Assembly (NCBI RefSeq): GCF_037042905.1
Contig: NC_087251.1
Coordinates: forward strand, 39,310,001 to 39,374,000
Direction of reading: 5' to 3'
Origin: Lytechinus pictus
Lineage: Eukaryota
DNA: 64,000 bases
Position numbers and translations under genes: made by a program
Shown here: positions 2,010 to 45,079 of the stretch, piece after piece
How positions within the stretch are numbered: the first letter of the stretch is position 1
How the letters are laid out: every line of letters starts with the position of its first letter
The notes under the pieces: generated by a model
Told to the model about the DNA's origin: nothing
Databases searched by the model: none
What the model saw: the letters and a program-made list of their open reading frames with translations, nothing else

Positions 2010-2190
2010 TAGTATCATGAGTTCCATACCATGATTGCAGCATTTTCCTTTGTGAACATTATTTATTAATGATGTCTTTATATTTTCACTCCCAAGTTGT
2101 CTGTCATTGCTGATGATTGCTTCCGTCATGCTTTCATGTCTTACAAGAACTATTTAATCATTTCTTTCAACATTTCAAAGTCTAATTTAT

Positions 2191-3323
2191 CAGGGATGCC
2201 ACTAGGTGTCTTCCAAAGCCCTGAAATTTTTTTGCGGGCAGGGGCAGTGTCCATGGACAGTGATGACTTTCTATAACATGGTACGGTATGGTGGATAGTG
2301 GAGAGGTAGCAGCAAATCTAACCCATCCTGAGACCAGTAAGATCCCCAAGAGAATCACACTTTTTTGTTCTTCATATTTGTTTTTGTTTGTGTGTATTTT
2401 TCAAAAGTGGCTTCTTACCTCATTGTGATCAATGACTTTGAAGACAAGGTTTGAAAGACTGATGGTAGTTGTTGGGTGCTGCTTCTAGCACGCCTCCTTT
2501 TCTGATTAATTTCTTTCGCGGCATGTTCACAAAACCTCTTTTTGCCGATTGAAGCATACTTCAGTTGTTTGTTGCACCAAATACACAAAGCAACACCAGG
2601 TTGGTTTATCTTGCGAATATATTCCGACATAAAATCTCCATTGTTTTTTTTTATCCTCCATCCATGACCAGTTCCATTTGTTCTTAACGTTCACTTCCAA
2701 TGCCTTGATATCGTCCGTTCTCTCTATTACTTTTGTACTCATCTTGGCTGCCTAATCATATCCAGTGCAGTGGCAGAGAATCATAATCCAAAGAATCTGG
2801 TGATGATGATCATTAATATGTTCTTGCAAACATGTTCAAATTCGATGGAAAAGTCAGATGATAAATCACAAAATATATCCAGTTTGGCCTACGTACACAT
2901 GCAGCTCCCCTGGCCTTGCTCTTGCGACGTACCAAATACGTTCGCACATGGCAAGCTGGAGTTAGCACAATGCCCAGCACAGTCTACACCGATGCTCCCG
3001 GCGGGGATGACAGGCATAGACCGGTAGGCACACGTGATGGTTTGGAGCATTTCTATATGGTTTTAAGAGGGCAGCACGCGTACATCCGTTGTTCAGCGCA
3101 CGCGTTTATAAATTATGTACTGTATATAGCAAATATCTCTCACTCGGTCAATTGACATGCATCGCGATCGAGAAAGAGAGAGCTATAGAGAGGGGGAAAG
3201 AAAGGAGGACTTTCCGATTTTTTTTAAATATACAGAAAACAGGAAAAGTCAGAAACACAGAAATAAGACAGATTGCAGGGAAAAGCCGGAATTCCAGGTA
3301 AAGGCGGAAAAGTGGCATCCCTG
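2191..3323 (-). mobile_element. Internally deleted hAT-like DNA transposon with 13-bp TIRs and 7-bp TSD
   Basis: TIR CAGGGATGCCACT (2191) / AGTGGCATCCCTG (ends 3323); AATTTAT directly flanks both ends (2184-2190, 3324-3330). Confidence 0.8.
2415..2742 (-). pseudogene. Frameshifted N-terminal zinc-finger (BED-like) fragment of a transposase
   Basis: Two overlapping minus-strand frames join across a T-run near 2644-2652: ...KNKWNWSWMEDKK / MSEYIRKINQPGVALCIWCNKQLKYASIGKKRFCEH, a W-rich motif plus CxxC...H; lies inside the TIR element. Confidence 0.6.
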
Positions 3324-3447
3324 AATTTATAGCTTTTAGATTTTTTTTTCTTTTCCCCCTCTATTTCTGATTGGTTTCTGATGAACACACGAAATATCCC
3401 ATGATGTTTTTCCATCTTACGTACATTCATTGGTCTTGCTGTTGCTA

Positions 3448-3670
3448 CAGTCCGACCTCTCTTATCCGGCCTCCCCTTATCCAGATCTCTCTATTATCCG
3501 GACGCACACTTGCCAAGATTTTTTTTCCCAATTCAATCAAGTACGTGGGGAAATGAATTTCAATCTAAACTCAATCTGACGCAAACTCACTTTGATTTCA
3601 TATATTTGCCAACATAGTCTACCTACAACCACATTTTTCATGAAAATATCTCACCCAAATCACCGAAAGA
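3448..3670. mobile_element. Partial Tc1/pogo-type MITE, inverted relative to 1735-2009
   Basis: TA|CAGTCCGACCTCTCTTATCCGG start; the following ~220 bp are a diverged reverse complement of ~1797-2009. Confidence 0.55.
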
Positions 3671-4123
3671 AATTAGTTAGGATAATTTTCTAGTTAATCA
3701 GGGGGCTGCGCAAACATTTCTTTACCTTCTCATTTTATTTCCCGGGGAAAAACAACACATGTCTTGCTAGCTAGCGCTAGGCCTCGATACTGACCAGTGC
3801 TGACAATACTGACAATGGCTGACATTGCGAAGCTGCGATGATCCAATTGGTCCTTTGACATTCAATCCTTGTTGTTTTCCCGCGGACACATATTTTCAGG
3901 ATTGGTGACTGGTTTTCCAATCTTCAGCCACCACTTCTTCTCCTAGATTCGCTATGATCTGCCAGAATCCATGTCACATATCATTCATTTCTTTATATTC
4001 TCTTGGTTCGATTTTCATTGAATCTCTTCGTCTATTTCGGTATCAAGCTCTGTTGTGTTCTTCTGCTGGGCGTCGGCTCGAAGACGGATTTCTGCTTCTG
4101 ATGTCATGGTGGCGATGGCCTGA

Positions 4124-15342: not shown

Positions 15343-17158
15343 AACAAGTGGAACGCCTGGCAGTCTTGCCTGCATTACGCAATTCGATATAGCAACAGTG
15401 CTGTCTTTTAAAAAACAGCTAATTTATAATTATTCACAGAAGAAAACACTAATATGATAATAAAATATTATGTCCATTGACCCAAACTTCATGTGAAAAG
15501 ACTGGGATGGAATAACACTTGTCATAAGAGTCTTGCACGTAAACTTTAATGTTGACCTCAAAATGAACTTTGACCATACCATGTGACCTCCAAACACAAT
15601 AACATGCAGGTGTCCTAAATACACCTACGAACCAAGTTTGGTATAAAAGTGACTTAGGCTGCAGAGTTATGTGTCATATCATTGACCTCAAAATGACCTT
15701 TGACCTTACCATGTGACCTCTGATTGTGCCATGATATGCAGGTCTCCTCAGTACATCTACAACCCAAGTTTGGGTGAAAAGTGACTTACTGTTGCAGAGT
15801 TATGTGTCATAAGAGAGTCTTGCACATAAACTTTAACATTGACCTGGAAATGACCTTTGACCTTTCATGTGACCTCCGACTGCAGCATTACATGCAGGTC
15901 CCCCAAGTACATCTACCGTCCCAGTTTGGTTGAAAAGTGACTTACGGTTGCGGAGTTAGGTGTCATAAGAGAGTCTTGCATGTAAACTTTAACGTTGACC
16001 TGAAAATGACCTTTGACCTTAACATGTGACCTCTGACTGCAGCATAACATGCAGGTCCCCTCAAGTACATCTACCGTCCAAGTTTGGTTGAAAAGTGACT
16101 TACGGTTGCGGAGTTATGTGTCATAAGAGAGTCTTGCACATAAACTTTAACATTGACCTGGAAATGACCTTTGACCTTTCATGTGACCTCCGACTGCAGC
16201 ATTACATGCAGGTCCCCCAAGTACATCTACCGTCCCAGTTTGGTTGAAAAGTGACTTACGGTTGCGGAGTTAGGTGTCATAAGAGAGTCTTGCATGTAAA
16301 CTTTAACGTTGACCTGAAAATGACCTTTGACCTTAACATGTGACCTCTGACTGCAGCATAACATGCAGGTCCCCTCAAGTACATCTACCGTCCAAGTTTG
16401 GTTGAAAAGTGACTTACGGTTGCGGAGTTAGGTGTCATAAGAGAGTCTTGCATGTAAACTTTAACGTTGACCTGAAAATGACCTTTGACCTTAACATGTG
16501 ACCTCTGACTGCAGCATAACATACAGGTCCCCTCAAGTACATCTACCGTCCAAGTTTGGTTGAAAAGTGACTTACGGTTGCGGAGTTAGGTGTCATAAGA
16601 GAGTCTTGCATGTAAACTTTAACGTTGACCTGATAATGACCTTTGACCTTAACATGTGACCTCTGACTGCAGCATAACATGCAGGTCCCCTCAAGTACAT
16701 CTACCGTCCACGTTTGGTTGAAAAGTGACTTACGGTTGCGGAGTTAGGTGTCATAAGAGAGTCTTGCATGTAAACTTTAACGTTGACCTGATAATGTCCT
16801 TTGACCTTAACATGTGACCTCTGACTGCAGCATAACATGCAGGTCCCCTCAAGTACATCTACCGTCCCAGTTTGGTTGAAAAGTGACTTACGGTTGCGGA
16901 GTTAGGTGTCATAAGAGTCTTGCATGTAAACTTTAACGTTGACCTGAAAATGACCTTTGACATTACCATGTGACCTCTGACATTACCATGTGACCTCTGA
17001 CAGAATCATAACATGCAGGTTCTCCAAGTTCATCTACCATCCACATTTGGTTGAAAAGTGACTTACGGTTGCGGAGTCATGCATCATACGCTTTTTGACG
17101 GACGGACAACATTTGGATCCCTTAGTCTCGCCTTCACCTCTGGAGGGCGAGACAAAAA
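15343..17158 (+). mobile_element. Non-autonomous Helentron/HINE-like element with internal ~157-bp satellite
   Basis: AACAAGTGG start with subterminal GTCTTGCCTGCA; GACGGACGGAC microrepeat; terminal hairpin GTCTCGCC...GGCGAGAC (17125-17153) plus A-run. Confidence 0.75.
15520..17080. repeat. Tandem array of ~157-bp units (~10 copies)
   Basis: CATGTGACCT recurs at 15580, 15710, 15866, 16023, 16180, 16337, 16495, 16653, 16811 and 16967. Confidence 0.95.
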
Positions 17159-17694: not shown

Positions 17695-17738
17695 GATAGT
17701 GATGAAGATGATGACTTAAGAGATGATGATGATAATGG

Positions 17739-17769
<31 letters not shown>

Positions 17770-17785
17770 GATGATGGTGGTGGTA

Positions 17786-17836
<51 letters not shown>

Positions 17837-18030
17837 ATGATGATGATGGTGGTGATGATGATGATGATGATGGTGGTGATGATGATGATGGTGATAGTGA
17901 TCATGATGCTGTTTATATTGTTGGTGATGGTCACGATAGTGAGGGTGATGTAAAGGGTGAAGAAAATGATGATGATGATATTTATGATAATGACGTTCAT
18001 GGTGGTGATGAGGATGATGCTGAAACTGAT
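17695..18030. repeat. Compound (GAT/GGT)n microsatellite
   Basis: Directly visible; ends ~30 bp from the splice donor at 18055-18060. Confidence 0.95.
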
Positions 18031-18147: not shown

Positions 18148-18717
18148 CTGTGAAGACAAAAACAAAATGAGTTAATTGCCATGAAAACTTTTGGTAACAA
18201 CAAATATCACTTTCATCAGTAGACTCCTGTATTGTGAACTTTTCTCACTTGTAAATGAGAAATTCATTTCATCAAATCTGTTTAAACATTGAATTTCATG
18301 AGATAAAGCTAAATTTGATATTTTAACTTAAAATTTCATTCTACCCAAGGAAAATATCACACCCTAAATCATTTAAACAAGTGTTGCCAGTCTCCCTCTC
18401 TTTCCATTGTTGTCTTTTTCTCTCTCTCTTAATCTCTCTTTCCCCAAGTGATCTTCCATCCTATCTTCTTTCTTCTTTTGCAATTTCAGAGGGCAATTTT
18501 CAATATTTTTTTTAATGGGTGGGGATGGGAATGTAGAAATATCTTTGTCCCATGTATTTGGGGTTCACTGCCTCAACAAAGTGCAAACTAGTTAACAAAT
18601 TTTTCGGCACCACTCCTATTTGTTTAAGATCAGTATGCTCGATCCGTAATGAAAATCATAAGATCAGTATGCTCGATCTGTAATGAAAATCATAAGATCA
18701 TAAGTCAGAAAAAATTG

Positions 18718-18789
18718 GAACCAGTGGGATTCGAACCTGCCATCTACTGCTTTCCGGGCAGCGACTCAACCACCAGGCTATTCTGGTTC
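18718..18789 (-). ncRNA. tRNA-like cassette in the inverted copy
   Basis: Reverse complement of 18958-19029. Confidence 0.6.
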
Positions 18790-18957
18790 ACGGCTAAAAA
18801 AACGACAAAAAAATTTGTTAACAAGTTATGATTTCCTCCTATAAAAAGCCTCTTAATTTACTATCTATTGTCCACGGCGGACGGCATTTGAATATCAATG
18901 AGTCAGAAAGAAGAGGATCGAGGGTATTTGAATTCCAGTTCATCGTGGCTTAGCCGT

Positions 18958-19029
18958 GAACCAGAATAGCCTGGTGGTTGAGTCGCTGCCCGGAAAGCAG
19001 TAGATGGCAGGTTCGAATCCCACTGGTTC
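18958..19029 (+). ncRNA. tRNA-like Pol III cassette (pseudo-tRNA, GGA in anticodon position); repeated in all 8 units
   Basis: A-box-like TAGCCTGGTGG (18967), B box GGTTCGAATCC (19010-19020), terminal stem GAACCAG/CTGGTTC, stem GCTGC/GCAGT around loop CCGGAAA, T6 at 19033-19038. The T-stem is mispaired and position 33 is C, so it is not a canonical tRNA. Confidence 0.65.
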
Positions 19030-22000
19030 CAATTTTTTCTGACTTATGATCTTATGATTTTCATTACAGATCGAGCATACTGATCTTATGATTTTCATTA
19101 CGGATCGAGCATACTGATCTTAAACAAATAGGAGTGGTGCCGAAAAATTTGTTAACAAGTTATGATTTCCTCCTATAAAAAAGCCTCTTAATTTACTATC
19201 TATTGTCCACGGCGGACGGCATTTGAATATCAATGAGTCAGAAAGAAGAGGATCGAGGGTATTTGAATTCCAGTTCATCGTGGCTTAGCCGTGAACCAGA
19301 ATAGCCTGGTGGTTGAGTCGCTGCCCGGAAAGCAGTAGATGGCAGGTTCGAATCCCACTGGTTCCAATTTTTTCTGACTTATGATCTTATGATTTTCATT
19401 ACAGATCGAGCATACTGATCTTATGATTTTCATTACGGATCGAGCATACTGATCTTAAACAAATAGGAGTGGTGCCGAAAAATTTGTTAACAAGTTATGA
19501 TTTCCTCCTATAAAAAGCCTCTTAATTTACTATCTATTGTCCACGGCGGACGGCATTTGAATATCAATGAGTCAGAAAGAAGAGGATCGAGGGTATTTGA
19601 ATTCCAGTTCATCGTGGCTTAGCCGTGAACCAGAATAGCCTGGTGGTTGAGTCGCTGCCCGGAAAGCAGTAGATGGCAGGTTCGAATCCCACTGGTTCCA
19701 ATTTTTTCTGACTTATGATCTTATGATTTTCATTACAGATCGAGCATACTGATCTTATGATTTTCATTACGGATCGAGCATACTGATCTTAAACAAATAG
19801 GAGTGGTGCCGAAAAATTTGTTAACAAGTTATGATTTCCTCCTATAAAAAGCCTCTTAATTTACTATCTATTGTCCACGGCGGACGGCATTTGAATATCA
19901 ATGAGTCAGAAAGAAGAGGATCGAGGGTATTTGAATTCCAGTTCATCGTGGCTTAGCCGTGAACCAGAATAGCCTGGTGGTTGAGTCGCTGCCCGGAAAG
20001 CAGTAGATGGCAGGTTCGAATCCCACTGGTTCCAATTTTTTCTGACTTATGATCTTATGATTTTCATTACAGATCGAGCATACTGATCTTATGATTTTCA
20101 TTACGGATCGAGCATACTGATCTTAAACAAATAGGAGTGGTGCCGAAAAATTTGTTAACAAGTTATGATTTCCTCCTATAAAAAGCCTCTTAATTTACTA
20201 TCTATTGTCCACGGCGGACGGCATTTGAATATCAATGAGTCAGAAAGAAGAGGATCGAGGGTATTTGAATTCCAGTTCATCGTGGCTTAGCCGTGAACCA
20301 GAATAGCCTGGTGGTTGAGTCGCTGCCCGGAAAGCAGTAGATGGCAGGTTCGAATCCCACTGGTTCCAATTTTTTCTGACTTATGATCTTATGATTTTCA
20401 TTACAGATCGAGCATACTGATCTTATGATTTTCATTACGGATCGAGCATACTGATCTTAAACAAATAGGAGTGGTGCCGAAAAATTTGTTAACAAGTTAT
20501 GATTTCCTCCTATAAAAAGCCTCTTAATTTACTATCTATTGTCCACGGCGGACGGCATTTGAATATCAATGAGTCAGAAAGAAGAGGATCGAGGGTATTT
20601 GAATTCCAGTTCATCGTGGCTTAGCCGTGAACCAGAATAGCCTGGTGGTTGAGTCGCTGCCCGGAAAGCAGTAGATGGCAGGTTCGAATCCCACTGGTTC
20701 CAATTTTTTCTGACTTATGATCTTATGATTTTCATTACAGATCGAGCATACTGATCTTATGATTTTCATTACGGATCGAGCATACTGATCTTAAACAAAT
20801 AGGAGTGGTGCCGAAAAATTTGTTAACAAGTTATGATTTCCTCCTATAAAAAGCCTCTTAATTTACTATCTATTGTCCACGGCGGACGGCATTTGAATAT
20901 CAATGAGTCAGAAAGAAGAGGATCGAGGGTATTTGAATTCCAGTTCATCGTGGCTTAGCCGTGAACCAGAATAGCCTGGTGGTTGAGTCGCTGCCCGGAA
21001 AGCAGTAGATGGCAGGTTCGAATCCCACTGGTTCCAATTTTTTCTGACTTATGATCTTATGATTTTCATTACAGATCGAGCATACTGATCTTATGATTTT
21101 CATTACGGATCGAGCATACTGATCTTAAACAAATAGGAGTGGTGCCGAAAAATTTGTTAACAAGTTATGATTTCCTCCTATAAAAAGCCTCTTAATTTAC
21201 TATCTATTGTCCACGGCGGACGGCATTTGAATATCAATGAGTCAGAAAGAAGAGGATCGAGGGTATTTGAATTCCAGTTCATCGTGGCTTAGCCGTGAAC
21301 CAGAATAGCCTGGTGGTTGAGTCGCTGCCCGGAAAGCAGTAGATGGCAGGTTCGAATCCCACTGGTTCCAATTTTTTCTGACTTATGATCTTATGATTTT
21401 CATTACAGATCGAGCATACTGATCTTATGATTTTCATTACGGATCGAGCATACTGATCTTAAACAAATAGGAGTGGTGCCGAAAAATTTGTTAACAAGTT
21501 ATGATTTCCTCCTATAAAAAAGCCTCTTAATTTACAAAGTGCAAACTGTTTTATCTCTTCTGAATTTATCAAAGTTGTCTGCATTCAAGTGTTATCTGTT
21601 ATCAGTTGCCAAAGGCAAAAAAAAGAGTTACTTTCAGGTGAAATACAGCAAAGAGTACATATCACTTACTTCCCACAAATGATTGGCATGTATTTTAAGA
21701 ATCGTATCCATTCAAAACAGACGCATCTTTATATTTTCATGCTTTTCTGGTTTTCATTGAAAGCCTCACTTTGAAAGGGAATCAACCGCAAATGCATTCT
21801 TGACAATAACTTACATACCGATGAGGTAAACCACCATCGCAACAGAATTATTTCATTTAAGTAATTCTCACGCTTTTCATTAAAGAATATGTTCATATCT
21901 AAAGCTGACAGTGGCAGCTCAGAGTTAATGGTTCCTTAGCTGTGTGTGCAGGCAATACAATTAAGGCAGCAGCAGCATAAGCTAAATTGCCTAAACATGT

Positions 22001-27847: not shown

Positions 27848-27871
27848 TAGTAGTAGTAGTAGCAGTAGTAC

Positions 27872-27904
<33 letters not shown>

Positions 27905-27920
27905 GAGTAGAAGCAGATGT

Positions 27921-27963
<43 letters not shown>

Positions 27964-27997
27964 AAGTAGTAGTAGTAGTAGGAGTAGAAGCAGATGT

Positions 27998-28087
<90 letters not shown>

Positions 28088-28088
28088 A

Positions 28089-28151
<63 letters not shown>

Positions 28152-28182
28152 CAGCAGTAGTAGTAGTAGAGTAGAAGTAGTG

Positions 28183-28249
<67 letters not shown>

Positions 28250-28272
28250 CAATAGCAGTAGCATTAGTAGTA

Positions 28273-28324
<52 letters not shown>

Positions 28325-28390
28325 CAGCAGCAGCAGTAGTAGTAGAAGAAGTAGAAGTAGTAATTAGTAGAAGTTGAAGTAGTAGTAGCA
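27848..28390. repeat. Long compound (TAG)n microsatellite
   Basis: Directly visible; the interruption GGAGTAGAAGCAGATGTG is itself duplicated (~27904 and 27981). Confidence 0.97.
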
Positions 28391-42994: not shown

Positions 42995-45079
42995 AATTCT
43001 TGTTTATGAATAGTGATTGAATGAACATTATCCTTTTCAAACTTGGCTCTCTAAGGAATGTTTAAATCAAGATTCCTTTTTTTTAATCTTAAGATTTAAA
43101 TTGCAGCATATTATATTTTGAAATTGATTATACAGGTTATGACTTGATGATGTTAAGCCCCTTTAAAAATCATTTCAGAACAGAGATTTTAAGCCTTAAG
43201 GTCATATTTCACTTCAATTCTTGTTAATGAATAGTGATTGAATGAACATTATCCTTTTCAAACTTGGCTCTCTAAGGAATGTTTAAATCAAGATTCTTTT
43301 TTTTTAATCTTAAGATTTAAATTGCAGCATATTATATTTTGAAATTGATTATACAGGTTATGACTTGATGATGTTAAGCCCCTTTAAAAATCATTTCAGA
43401 ACAGAGATTTTAAGCCTTAAGGTCATATTTCACTTCAATTCTTGTTAATGAATAGTGATTGAATGAACATTATCCTTTTCAAACTTGGCTCTCTAAGGAA
43501 TGTTTAAATCAAGATTCTTTTTTTTTTTAATCTAAGATTTAAATTGCAGCATATTGTATTTGAAATTGATTATACAGGTTATGACTTGATGATGTTAAGC
43601 CCCTTGAAAATTCATTTCAGAACAGAGATTTTAAGCCTTAAGGTCATATTTCACTTCAATTCTTGTTAATGAATAGTGATTGAATGAACATTATCCTTTT
43701 CAAACTTGGCTCTCTAAGGAATGTTTAAATCAAGATTCTTTTTTTTTAATCTTAAGATTTAAATTGCAGCATATTATATTTTGAAATTGATTATACAGGT
43801 TATGACTTGATGATGTTAAGCCCCTTTAAAAATCATTTCAGAACAGAGATTTTAAGCCTTAAGGTCATATTTCACTTCAATTCTTGTTAATGAATAGTGA
43901 TTGAATGAACATTATCCTTTTCAAAGTGGTAACTTGGCTCTCTAAGGAATGTTTGAATTAAGATTTTTTTTTTTAATCTAAGATTTACATTGCAGCATAT
44001 TATATTTTGAAATTGATTATACAGGTTATGACTTGATGATGTTAAGCCCCTTGAAAAATCATTTCAGAACAGAGATTTTAAGCCTTAAGGTCATATTTCA
44101 CTTCAATTCTTGTTAATGAATAGTGATTGAATGAACATTATCCTTTTCAAAGTGGTAACTTGGCTCTCTAAGGAATGTTTGAATTAAGATTTTTTTTTTA
44201 ATCTAAGATTTAAATTGCAGCATATTGTATTTGAAATTGATTATACAGGTTATGACTTGATGATGTTAAGCCCCTTGAAAATTCATTTCAGAACAAAGAT
44301 TTTAAGCCTTAAGGTCATATTTCACTTCAATTCTTGTTAATGAATAGTGATTGAATGAACATTATCCTTTTCAAAGTGGTAACTTAGCTCTCTAAGGAAT
44401 GTTTGAATTAAGATTTTTTTTTTAATCTAAGATTTAAATTGCAGCATATTATATTTAAAATTGATTATACAGGTTATGACTTGATGATGTTAAGCCCCTT
44501 AAAAAATCATTTCAGAACAAAGATTTAAGTCTTATGGCAGAGCTGCCAAGTTGTATTTTGCATTTTCAGTATTCTTATCCCCCAAAATCAGTATTTTGAC
44601 AAAAAAAATCTGTATTTTTACCGTGTGAGATAAATATGCAGACCTGCCAACTTCTGGGAATGAAAAACTGTATTCTGTGATAAAAAAACTGTATTTTTCC
44701 CCAAAAAAGTGTATTACATAATAAAATGCTTGGCGCACTCGCTCATCGCGGCGCTCAAGCTGCATGCAAGCTAAAATGCGCACTGCTCTTGCAGATGAAA
44801 AAAAAAACATTAAAACACGTGTATATCTTCACCCTGGTTTTAACAAAATGATTGAAAAAAAAATAAGTTACCTGAAATTACATTGATCTAATAACCATAT
44901 TTGTGTATGTTTTATGAAATAGAGACATATAGAGATTATTTTTCTCAATAAATTACGATTTAGTAAAAAAAAAAATTTCAAAGAAAAAACGTACTGCCGT
45001 ATTTTGGTTGCAAAAACGTACTAAATACGGCTAAAACGTACTGGTTGGCAGGTCTGTTGAGGTCATATTTCACTTCAAC
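42995..45079. repeat. AT-rich 221-226-bp satellite, 7 units, last unit split by a MITE
   Basis: GAATAGTGATTG at 43008, 43229, 43450, 43671, 43892, 44118, 44342; the unit resumes (GGTCATATTTCACTTCAA) at ~45061. Confidence 0.95.
44538..45056. mobile_element. CAGACCTGCCAAC-family MITE (two left ends) inserted in the satellite
   Basis: Left ends CAGAGCTGCCAA (44538) and CAGACCTGCCAAC (44639), right end GTTGGCAGGTCTG; flanks TTATGG / TTGAGG are degenerate copies of satellite TTAAGG. Confidence 0.7.

Follow-up and report, generated by a model that had tools for sequence, protein, structure and literature searches.

We analysed a 64,000-nucleotide stretch of the Lytechinus pictus genome (NC_087251.1, positions 39,310,001 to 39,374,000; hereafter the window), in which positions 18576-21547 are occupied by a tandem array of non-coding 334-bp units. 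The anatomy of this locus was established by direct reading of positions 18300-21900, together with tandem and repeat finders (Table 1). The array is preceded by an inverted, 5'-truncated partial unit (the head) and by a short filler, and one target-site duplication (TSD) brackets head and array together, with none between the units. A first-pass annotation, made from the letters alone, had described this order, with a 14-nt duplication identical on both sides, a 207-bp head, an 11-nt linker and eight 334-bp units; all were recovered where it had placed them, except that its ninth unit of about 46 bp measures 53-54 nt.

Table 1. Features of the insertion in the window. Unit coordinates count from window position 18809, taken as position 1.
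Feature	Position	Strand	Remarks
TSD, left copy, ACAAAGTGCAAACT	18576-18589	.	identical (14/14) to the copy at 21534-21547
Inverted 5'-truncated head, ~208 nt	~18590-18797	-	reverse complement of unit 142-334 plus 1-19
11-nt filler AAAAACGACAA between head and array	18798-18808	.	outside both repeat arms
Direct array, eight full 334/335-bp units and 53-54 nt of a ninth	18809-21535	+	period 334, 8.2 copies, 99% matches
Tail, from terminus B (unit ~16-20) to terminus A (unit ~53-58), in every unit	18829-18864	+	mapped block ends
Degenerate tRNA-like module, first unit, repeated in each unit	18957-19031 (unit 149-223)	+	Rfam; ARAGORN at relaxed threshold
TTTTTT immediately 3' of the tRNA-like module	19033-19038	+	also in the family majority sequence
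34-bp sequence duplicated within each unit (2.2 copies)	19047-19122	+	tandem finder
Predicted RNA hairpin across the unit junction (ATAGGAG...AATTTG-TTAA-CAAGTT...CTCCTAT)	19128-19176	+	fold of the equivalent stretch; at every junction
TSD, right copy, ACAAAGTGCAAACT	21534-21547	.	leading two bases (AC) ambiguous with unit sequence

The units of the window array are 99.7-100% identical to each other and contain 40% G+C. As the first-pass annotation had noted by eye, they differ only in the length of one A-run, which has six instead of five residues in the second unit and in the terminal partial one; the count of eight units rests on the genome assembly. Coding capacity is lacking, as had also been stated (the longest stop-free frame has 59 codons per unit), and reading of positions 18300-21900 revealed neither a poly(A), A-rich or microsatellite tail nor a terminal inverted repeat other than the head itself. 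The head is 100% complementary to the corresponding unit sequence and 100% identical to its own array; the repeat finder lengthens this arm to position 18586 (212 nt) by crossing one mismatch into the TSD. Its outer end lies inside a GTTAAC palindrome and belongs to the terminus type called B below, and the 3' end of the array (...CTCTTAATTTAC) belongs to type A. The AC that opens the right TSD copy might just as well belong to the unit, which puts the length of the duplication at 12-14 nt. The filler may have been added without a template, or may be a corrupted copy of ...GCCGAAAAA.

The first-pass annotation had set confinement of the unit to this locus beforehand as evidence against itself. 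A one-unit query of the 812-Mb assembly returned 528 candidate places instead. The best 40 were scored, and all 40 were dissected with their flanks, none being dropped. They lie on many contigs and are 93-100% identical to the unit: the family is dispersed and is not a local satellite. Nor are the other loci just monomers: arrays hold 1-13 full units, and 20 of the 40 hold two or more. Median identity is 0.997 within arrays (200 pairs, 20 arrays) and 0.967 between arrays (741 pairs), and a 13-unit array (L046) reaches a mean of 0.999. Duplications recur as well. Exact flanking repeats of at least 9 nt were present at 22 of the 40 loci, against 10 of 1560 control pairs, each made of the left flank of one locus and the right flank of a different one (edge slop 3 or 6). 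The 22 duplications listed by hand have a median length of 12 nt (range 9-16 nt) and are richer in A+T than the flanks (72% vs 64%); this list omits L052, which lies within a microsatellite, L062, where the repeat is element sequence, and 8-nt cases.

We then considered where the blocks of units begin and end. Their 3' ends fall into two narrow classes about 37 nt apart, type A at unit ~50-66 (...CTCTTAATTTAC(TA)) and type B at unit ~16-29 (...TTTGTTAACAA(ATTA)), and the 5' ends of 60 blocks are spread over the whole unit. Fixed 3' ends combined with scattered 5' ends are what reverse transcription leaves behind when it begins at a set point and its products are 5'-truncated. They speak, as do the duplications of about 12 nt, against a process at the DNA level, such as a satellite captured by a Helitron or Helentron, a miniature inverted-repeat transposable element (MITE) with a tandem core, or reintegrated extrachromosomal circles. 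Such an origin might be suggested by the other tandem arrays in the same window (158/314 bp and 221 bp) and by the fact that Helitron-type carriers are common in some invertebrates. The loci, however, show neither the duplication-free insertion with Helitron ends nor the fixed terminal inverted repeats of MITEs, their heads being of variable length, and a masked search of the window and 39 loci found no carrier sequence common to the flanks. We regard a DNA-level origin as scarcely credible.

The opposite-strand blocks are equally regular. They are present at 20 of the 40 loci, and in all 20 the two blocks face each other head-to-head, the 3' termini lying on the outside, so that the inversion seen in the window recurs throughout the family. 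Heads are 59-1444 nt long and are absent from half of the loci. Their identity to their own array is 0.98-1.00, best or tied, where the means for other arrays are 0.94-0.99; head and array thus arrive together, in agreement with the earlier proposal that the multimer was inserted in one event. Moreover, the two-block loci have one A and one B outer end in 15 of the 16 classifiable cases, the window included (head B, array A). If A and B are taken as equally frequent, the binomial probability of at least 15 heterotypic cases in 16 is 0.00026; the single-block loci (n = 20) are indeed evenly divided, 10 ending at A and 10 at B. It follows from the heterotypic ends that the ~37-nt stretch from B to A is found at only one of the two ends of each insertion.

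Some further features of the block ends were recorded. A 5'-end hot spot covering unit 1-7 is seen immediately 5' of the GTTAAC palindrome (10 of the 60 blocks; a uniform spread would give 1.3), which could mark the RNA's 5' end or a preferred stop or switch point. The idea that arrays starting at unit 2-5 are cryptic B-type heads masked by the palindrome was dropped, as the pairing with the other end was inconsistent. Slippage after initiation, by which the A-run in the tail would expand mainly in the terminal copy, was rejected as well: the mean run is 5.44 in terminal copies (n = 25) and 5.40 in internal ones (n = 107).

The features described above are those of Penelope-like elements (PLEs). 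According to the accessible part of Craig et al. (2021, PMC8557442), PLE insertions are 5'-truncated, often partially tandem, and often preceded by an inverted 5'-truncated copy, and a tail of 30-40 bp is often found at one end only. In vitro, a PLE protein in purified form introduces a nick into each strand of the DNA and extends it, and reverse transcription begins at two adjacent internal stem-loop sites without homology to the target, the tail being the sequence between these two start sites (Frangieh et al. 2024, PMC11167929). With a fixed 3' terminus, tandem copies, an inverted copy and a one-sided tail, all seen family-wide, the unit loci have the anatomy of Penelope-type insertions. 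The first-pass annotation had already pointed to Penelope-like elements, and the two 3' termini, heterotypic in nearly all classifiable head-bearing loci, add a further feature to that reading. Autonomous PLEs differ from the unit in having an open reading frame (ORF) and a length of several kb; their tandems are partial, whereas unit insertions comprise up to 13 full copies, and the unit has no extended similarity to the one PLE fragment that we read. From this anatomy, which was observed directly across the family, we consider it probable, as a joint proposition, that the window locus is a single young insertion from a dispersed family of non-coding, non-autonomous retroelements and that this family is copied by PLE machinery, that is, by a telomerase-like reverse transcriptase with a GIY-YIG nickase.

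Endonuclease-bearing PLEs are present and have been recently active in this genome. Pfam GIY-YIG matches were found within open frames of up to 954 aa, and one locus, L069, contains a 5'-truncated PLE copy whose ORF (L069:220-975) carries a C-terminal GIY-YIG domain. Used as a query (1764 nt), this copy returned 1754 candidate places, the 41 non-self matches listed being 92-98% identical. Of these 41 matches, 24 stop at query 1700-1709, 13 reach the end of the query and 4 stop elsewhere. The short terminus corresponds to L069 ~1932-1941 (...TTTCTAATTTAC) and, as a second query indicated, the long class ends mostly at L069 1994-1998. The resident PLE family has two 3' termini about 57 nt apart, as in the two-terminus pattern of the unit family, and its three inverted pairs each consist of one long and one short end.

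Predicted folding of the RNA places the unit termini in a comparable setting. In the hairpin that spans each unit junction, terminus B (unit 16-20) falls within the apical loop and immediately 3' of it; terminus A is found some 20 nt 3' of the base. The palindrome of this hairpin, AATTTGTTAACAAATT, is the majority form; the window variant has G at two positions. The RNA of the whole unit folds far better than shuffled sequences (-97.5 vs -79.6 kcal/mol, z -3.3, with 0 of 100 shuffles as good).

Several observations weigh against a PLE-driven origin. The terminus B hairpin taken alone is no stabler than shuffles (z 0.09). No autonomous partner was identified in a comparison that covers one PLE fragment: the short terminus of the L069 PLE and terminus A have no more than a 10-12-nt motif in common (TCTAATTTAC vs TCTTAATTTAC), reducible to TCT(T)AATTTAC and nothing beyond, and alignment of the two 3' regions was no better than with shuffles, 181 of 500 of which reached the score. 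The RNA required by the PLE protein in vitro also includes sequence just downstream of the start sites (PMC11167929). As to the loci themselves, one head-bearing locus, the old and rearranged L068, has two B ends; at four others (L038, L040, L048 and L063) an outer end lies elsewhere and cannot be classified; and a clear duplication is absent at 18 of the 40. The 40 best-scoring places among 528 are moreover biased towards young, long arrays, and the RNA intermediate is a deduction from assembled DNA.

Three observations concern the resident PLEs and locus L069. The canonical PLE family is very abundant and young, with 1754-2199 candidate places across queries and 92-99% identity among those scored (examples in this assembly, G000: C2:37587176-37592150, C10:17197928-17201564 and C3:73823631-73827119). 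At L069:190-232, a 43-nt inverted copy of the unit tail only (unit 18-55, 79% identity, with an expanded A-run) directly abuts the 5'-truncation point of the PLE copy (L069:233-2484), and the long 3' terminus of that PLE abuts the type B 3' end of an opposite-strand unit array. With the arrays masked, this 43-nt piece was the only unit-like sequence outside arrays in the window and 39 loci. The arrangement could reflect a hybrid event involving both unit RNA and PLE RNA, or repeated targeting of the tail sequence by the endonuclease.

We next turned to the tRNA-like part of the unit, which the first-pass annotation had called a tRNA-like Pol III (RNA polymerase III) module. The tRNA-like character was confirmed in a degenerate form. 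Rfam assigns the module to the tRNA clan with 18.6 bits (E 1.1, gathering score 47), and ARAGORN finds no tRNA in the unit at default settings; at 90% of its thresholds it proposes, for unit 149-223, a cloverleaf of 75 nt with GGA as anticodon. Its acceptor and anticodon stems are good, its D and T stems poor, and the cloverleaf alone is no stabler than shuffles (z -0.16). A B-box-like motif, GGTTCGAATCC, lies within it. In one unit from each of 39 arrays the module is the least variable segment, with a mean minor-allele fraction of 0.0043 vs 0.0144 overall and 9 variable columns out of 72, which hints at constraint in those lineages that continue copying. A role for Pol III in transcribing the whole unit is hard to sustain, because TTTTTT, which would serve as a Pol III terminator, directly follows the module: a transcript starting from the module would be expected to end after about 80 nt without either start site. 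The tRNA-like part could therefore not easily be the promoter of the whole unit. Two further TTTT runs occur in the 34-bp repeats. The module may rather be the relic of a captured short interspersed element (SINE), a signal for RNase P/Z processing of multi-unit transcripts, or a local Pol III unit. A Pol II promoter could be provided by TATAAAAAG (18840-18848), located in the tail some 20 nt 5' of terminus A, which would drive transcription into the next unit.

This organization also bears on the possibility that the family is an ordinary tRNA-derived SINE dependent on long interspersed elements (LINEs), with arrays and palindromes produced by later unequal recombination or self-insertion. 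The presence of a tRNA-like module would fit, the 9-16-nt duplications are equally compatible with LINE-type insertion, and L1-type twin priming, which can invert 5' parts, could yield inverted 5' parts here too. Canonical SINEs, however, have a 5' tRNA head with A and B boxes that directs a Pol III transcript of the whole element, and a LINE-derived, A-rich or microsatellite 3' tail. In the unit the module has an internal position, some 95 nt 3' of terminus A, a Pol III transcript ended by TTTTTT would lack both termini, and the element ends in ...GTTAACAA or ...CTCTTAATTTAC(TA) with no tail of that kind. We refrain from classing the family among canonical SINEs, given the internal module and the TTTTTT. 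Recombination would not be expected to leave a single duplication around head and array with none between units, nor to produce whole-array 5' truncation, two termini 37 nt apart and one of each per insertion; and the heads reach the 3' terminus of the element at their outer end, unlike the products of L1 twin priming. A LINE-dependent SINE thus appears very unlikely. The closest precedent is in bivalves, where the accessible part of one report (PMC11481361) describes, in one species, multimers of 4-15 units of tRNA-derived SINEs arranged as TSD1-(SINE)n-TSD1, together with palindromes. The tRNA-related module, the flanked multimers and the palindromes are shared with our unit. That report assigns LINE partners and ascribes the multimers and palindromes to unequal recombination; the words 'Penelope' and 'PLE' have 0 occurrences in its accessible part.

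A different comparison is offered by retrozymes. According to the accessible parts of the relevant reports, animal retrozymes have 150-450-bp units and form circles (PMC7229834), and non-LTR (long terminal repeat) retrozymes are thought to depend on PLEs (PMC7229834; bioRxiv 10.64898/2026.07.22.740005; PMC8969392). They resemble the present family in their non-coding units of a few hundred bp and low G+C, their dispersed tandem multimers and their duplications longer than 4 bp. Retrozyme repeats are marked by a type I hammerhead, and here our unit, known from DNA, differs, carrying a tRNA-like module in its place: no hammerhead or other Rfam ribozyme was found at E up to 10 in 18400-19600 on both strands, no hammerhead in L046, the array of 13 units, at E up to 1, and no Rfam match at gathering score across the whole window. 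The first-pass annotation, which had reported no canonical hammerhead and concluded that the element fits neither ordinary SINEs nor retrozymes, is supported on both counts. Lack of a hammerhead is not unusual among PLEs, as Naiad and most Chlamys PLEs do without (accessible part of PMC8557442), and hammerhead mutants of a PLE insert normally in vitro (PMC11167929).

By analogy to what has been proposed for retrozymes, the same PLE-type integration might have used a 334-nt or dimeric circular RNA, copied repeatedly round, as template. Several features would suit a circle. Long arrays are seamless and near-identical, as in L046, and arrays of up to 13 units would have to escape shrinkage by 5' truncation at each generation. 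At another locus (L047, G000:C2:32410400-32416100), the A-run of the array at 2017-3761 alternates 4,5,4,5,4, with unit lengths of 333/334, giving a two-unit higher-order period within one insertion, as from a dimeric template. Viroid-like RNAs have compact folds, and the unit RNA, as noted above, also folds well. Animal retrozymes in the same size range do make circles. The difficulty lies in making the circle here, as no self-cleaving ribozyme would produce unit-length ends, and RNase P/Z cuts at a tRNA-like module would yield ends unsuitable for joining by the tRNA ligase RtcB. Unprocessed multi-copy RNA is, besides, the likely main substrate of the one PLE protein studied in vitro (PMC11167929), and tandem DNA looks alike whether it stems from a linear multimer, from template jumping or from rolling copying of a circle. 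We lean to a linear multi-unit RNA and hold a circular template to be rather unlikely.

All together, these data suggest the following course of events, in which the enzyme, the form of the RNA and the polymerase are what we infer from the anatomy. A multi-unit RNA, most likely made by Pol II or by read-through of an existing array and not by Pol III, would be bound by a PLE protein. The target would be nicked on both strands, about 12-14 nt apart, and each 3'-OH would prime reverse transcription within the RNA from either of two neighbouring start sites, the first in the loop of the GTTAAC hairpin (unit 16-20) and the second about 37 nt downstream (unit 53-58). One strand would give rise to the long direct array, 5'-truncated at a variable point, and the other to the short inverted head; the two complementary DNAs would then be joined, in the window with the 11-nt filler, and the staggered nicks would be converted into the duplication.

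The integration of PLEs is the least understood route of retrotransposition, and the model of two start sites and priming on both strands is founded on a single in vitro system (PMC11167929). With a dependant that is short, young and high in copy number, there would be hundreds of natural insertion products in which start sites, the one-tail rule, fillers and nick spacing can be read. The family would also indicate that lacking a hammerhead need not keep a PLE dependant from thriving, a point relevant to the purpose of this ribozyme, and would provide an alternative account of SINE multimers and palindromes that annotation pipelines now split or label as satellites.

Non-autonomous dependants of PLEs are already known. 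In the accessible part of PMC8557442, non-autonomous Chlamys elements such as MRC1 of Chlamydomonas are non-coding, lack a hammerhead and yield multicopy head-to-tail insertions like those of our unit. Unlike it, MRC1-type elements have 3' ends in common with known autonomous families and contain no module derived from a small RNA; the present host, moreover, is an animal, and the resident PLE read here has a C-terminal endonuclease. Modules derived from small-RNA genes are known in turn from LTR-type dependants: the TRIMp3 elements Helenus, Ajax and Cassandra are non-autonomous, do not depend on LINEs and contain such a module, but they have LTRs, a primer-binding site, a polypurine tract and 4-5-bp duplications (accessible part of PMC10886601), where our unit has PLE-type ends. 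What looks new is the combination, a tandemly inserting, hammerhead-free PLE dependant with a tRNA module, of which we found no description in the literature searched, a search that lay outside subscription journals, Repbase and Dfam. As a tentative suggestion, well short of probable, the family may be the first of a SINE-like class with a tRNA module that parasitises PLEs and not LINEs, the tRNA-like fold having taken over the work of the retrozyme hammerhead, either through RNase P/Z cutting into units or as a Pol III unit that keeps the repeats active. If this were true, PLE-type priming on both strands, and not recombination, would have given rise to the tandem and palindromic SINE structures of bivalves as its primary products.

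Further traces of the family were sought in 24 public sequencing runs, all as Logan contigs. The unit is extremely abundant in four of them, X1, X8, X12 and X9, the last three of which are RNA only by our guess, and the unique right flank of the window insertion was found only in X1, a DNA run. Among the contigs shown for these four runs, none bridges or skips the window insertion, and opposite-strand joints were listed for X1 only. Tandem and opposite-strand joints of the family are thereby found in an independent DNA run, none being specific to the window locus. A dip in depth over unit 1-45 was rejected as an RNA feature, since the DNA run shows the same dip and it fits the variant bases that the window has there. 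The unit also occurs in runs labelled as organism B (X9 and X14) and organism C (X18), the X9 contigs being at least 99% alike; taking the runs as labelled, the family is common to close relatives or has been exchanged among them very recently.

At several arrays the flanks consist of transposon fragments, with RVT_1, endonuclease-reverse transcriptase and DDE transposase sequences (L041:2568-3083, L039:3-1328, L057:3-842, L040:4853-5500, L044:3063-3743 and L062:1-651), the unit often landing in other repeats.

Four other repeats were noted in the window. A tandem array at 15682-16981, with a period of 158, a higher-order period of 314 bp, 8.3 copies and 94-96% matches, showed no inverted head, clear flanking duplication or Rfam match. 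At 42995-44534, an AT-rich 221-bp unit is repeated 6.9 times (96% matches) and includes the short palindrome TTTTAATCTTAAGATTTAAA. The remaining two are trinucleotide arrays, (TGA)n with a 24-nt superperiod at 17700-17929 and (TAG)n with 181 copies at 27848-28388.

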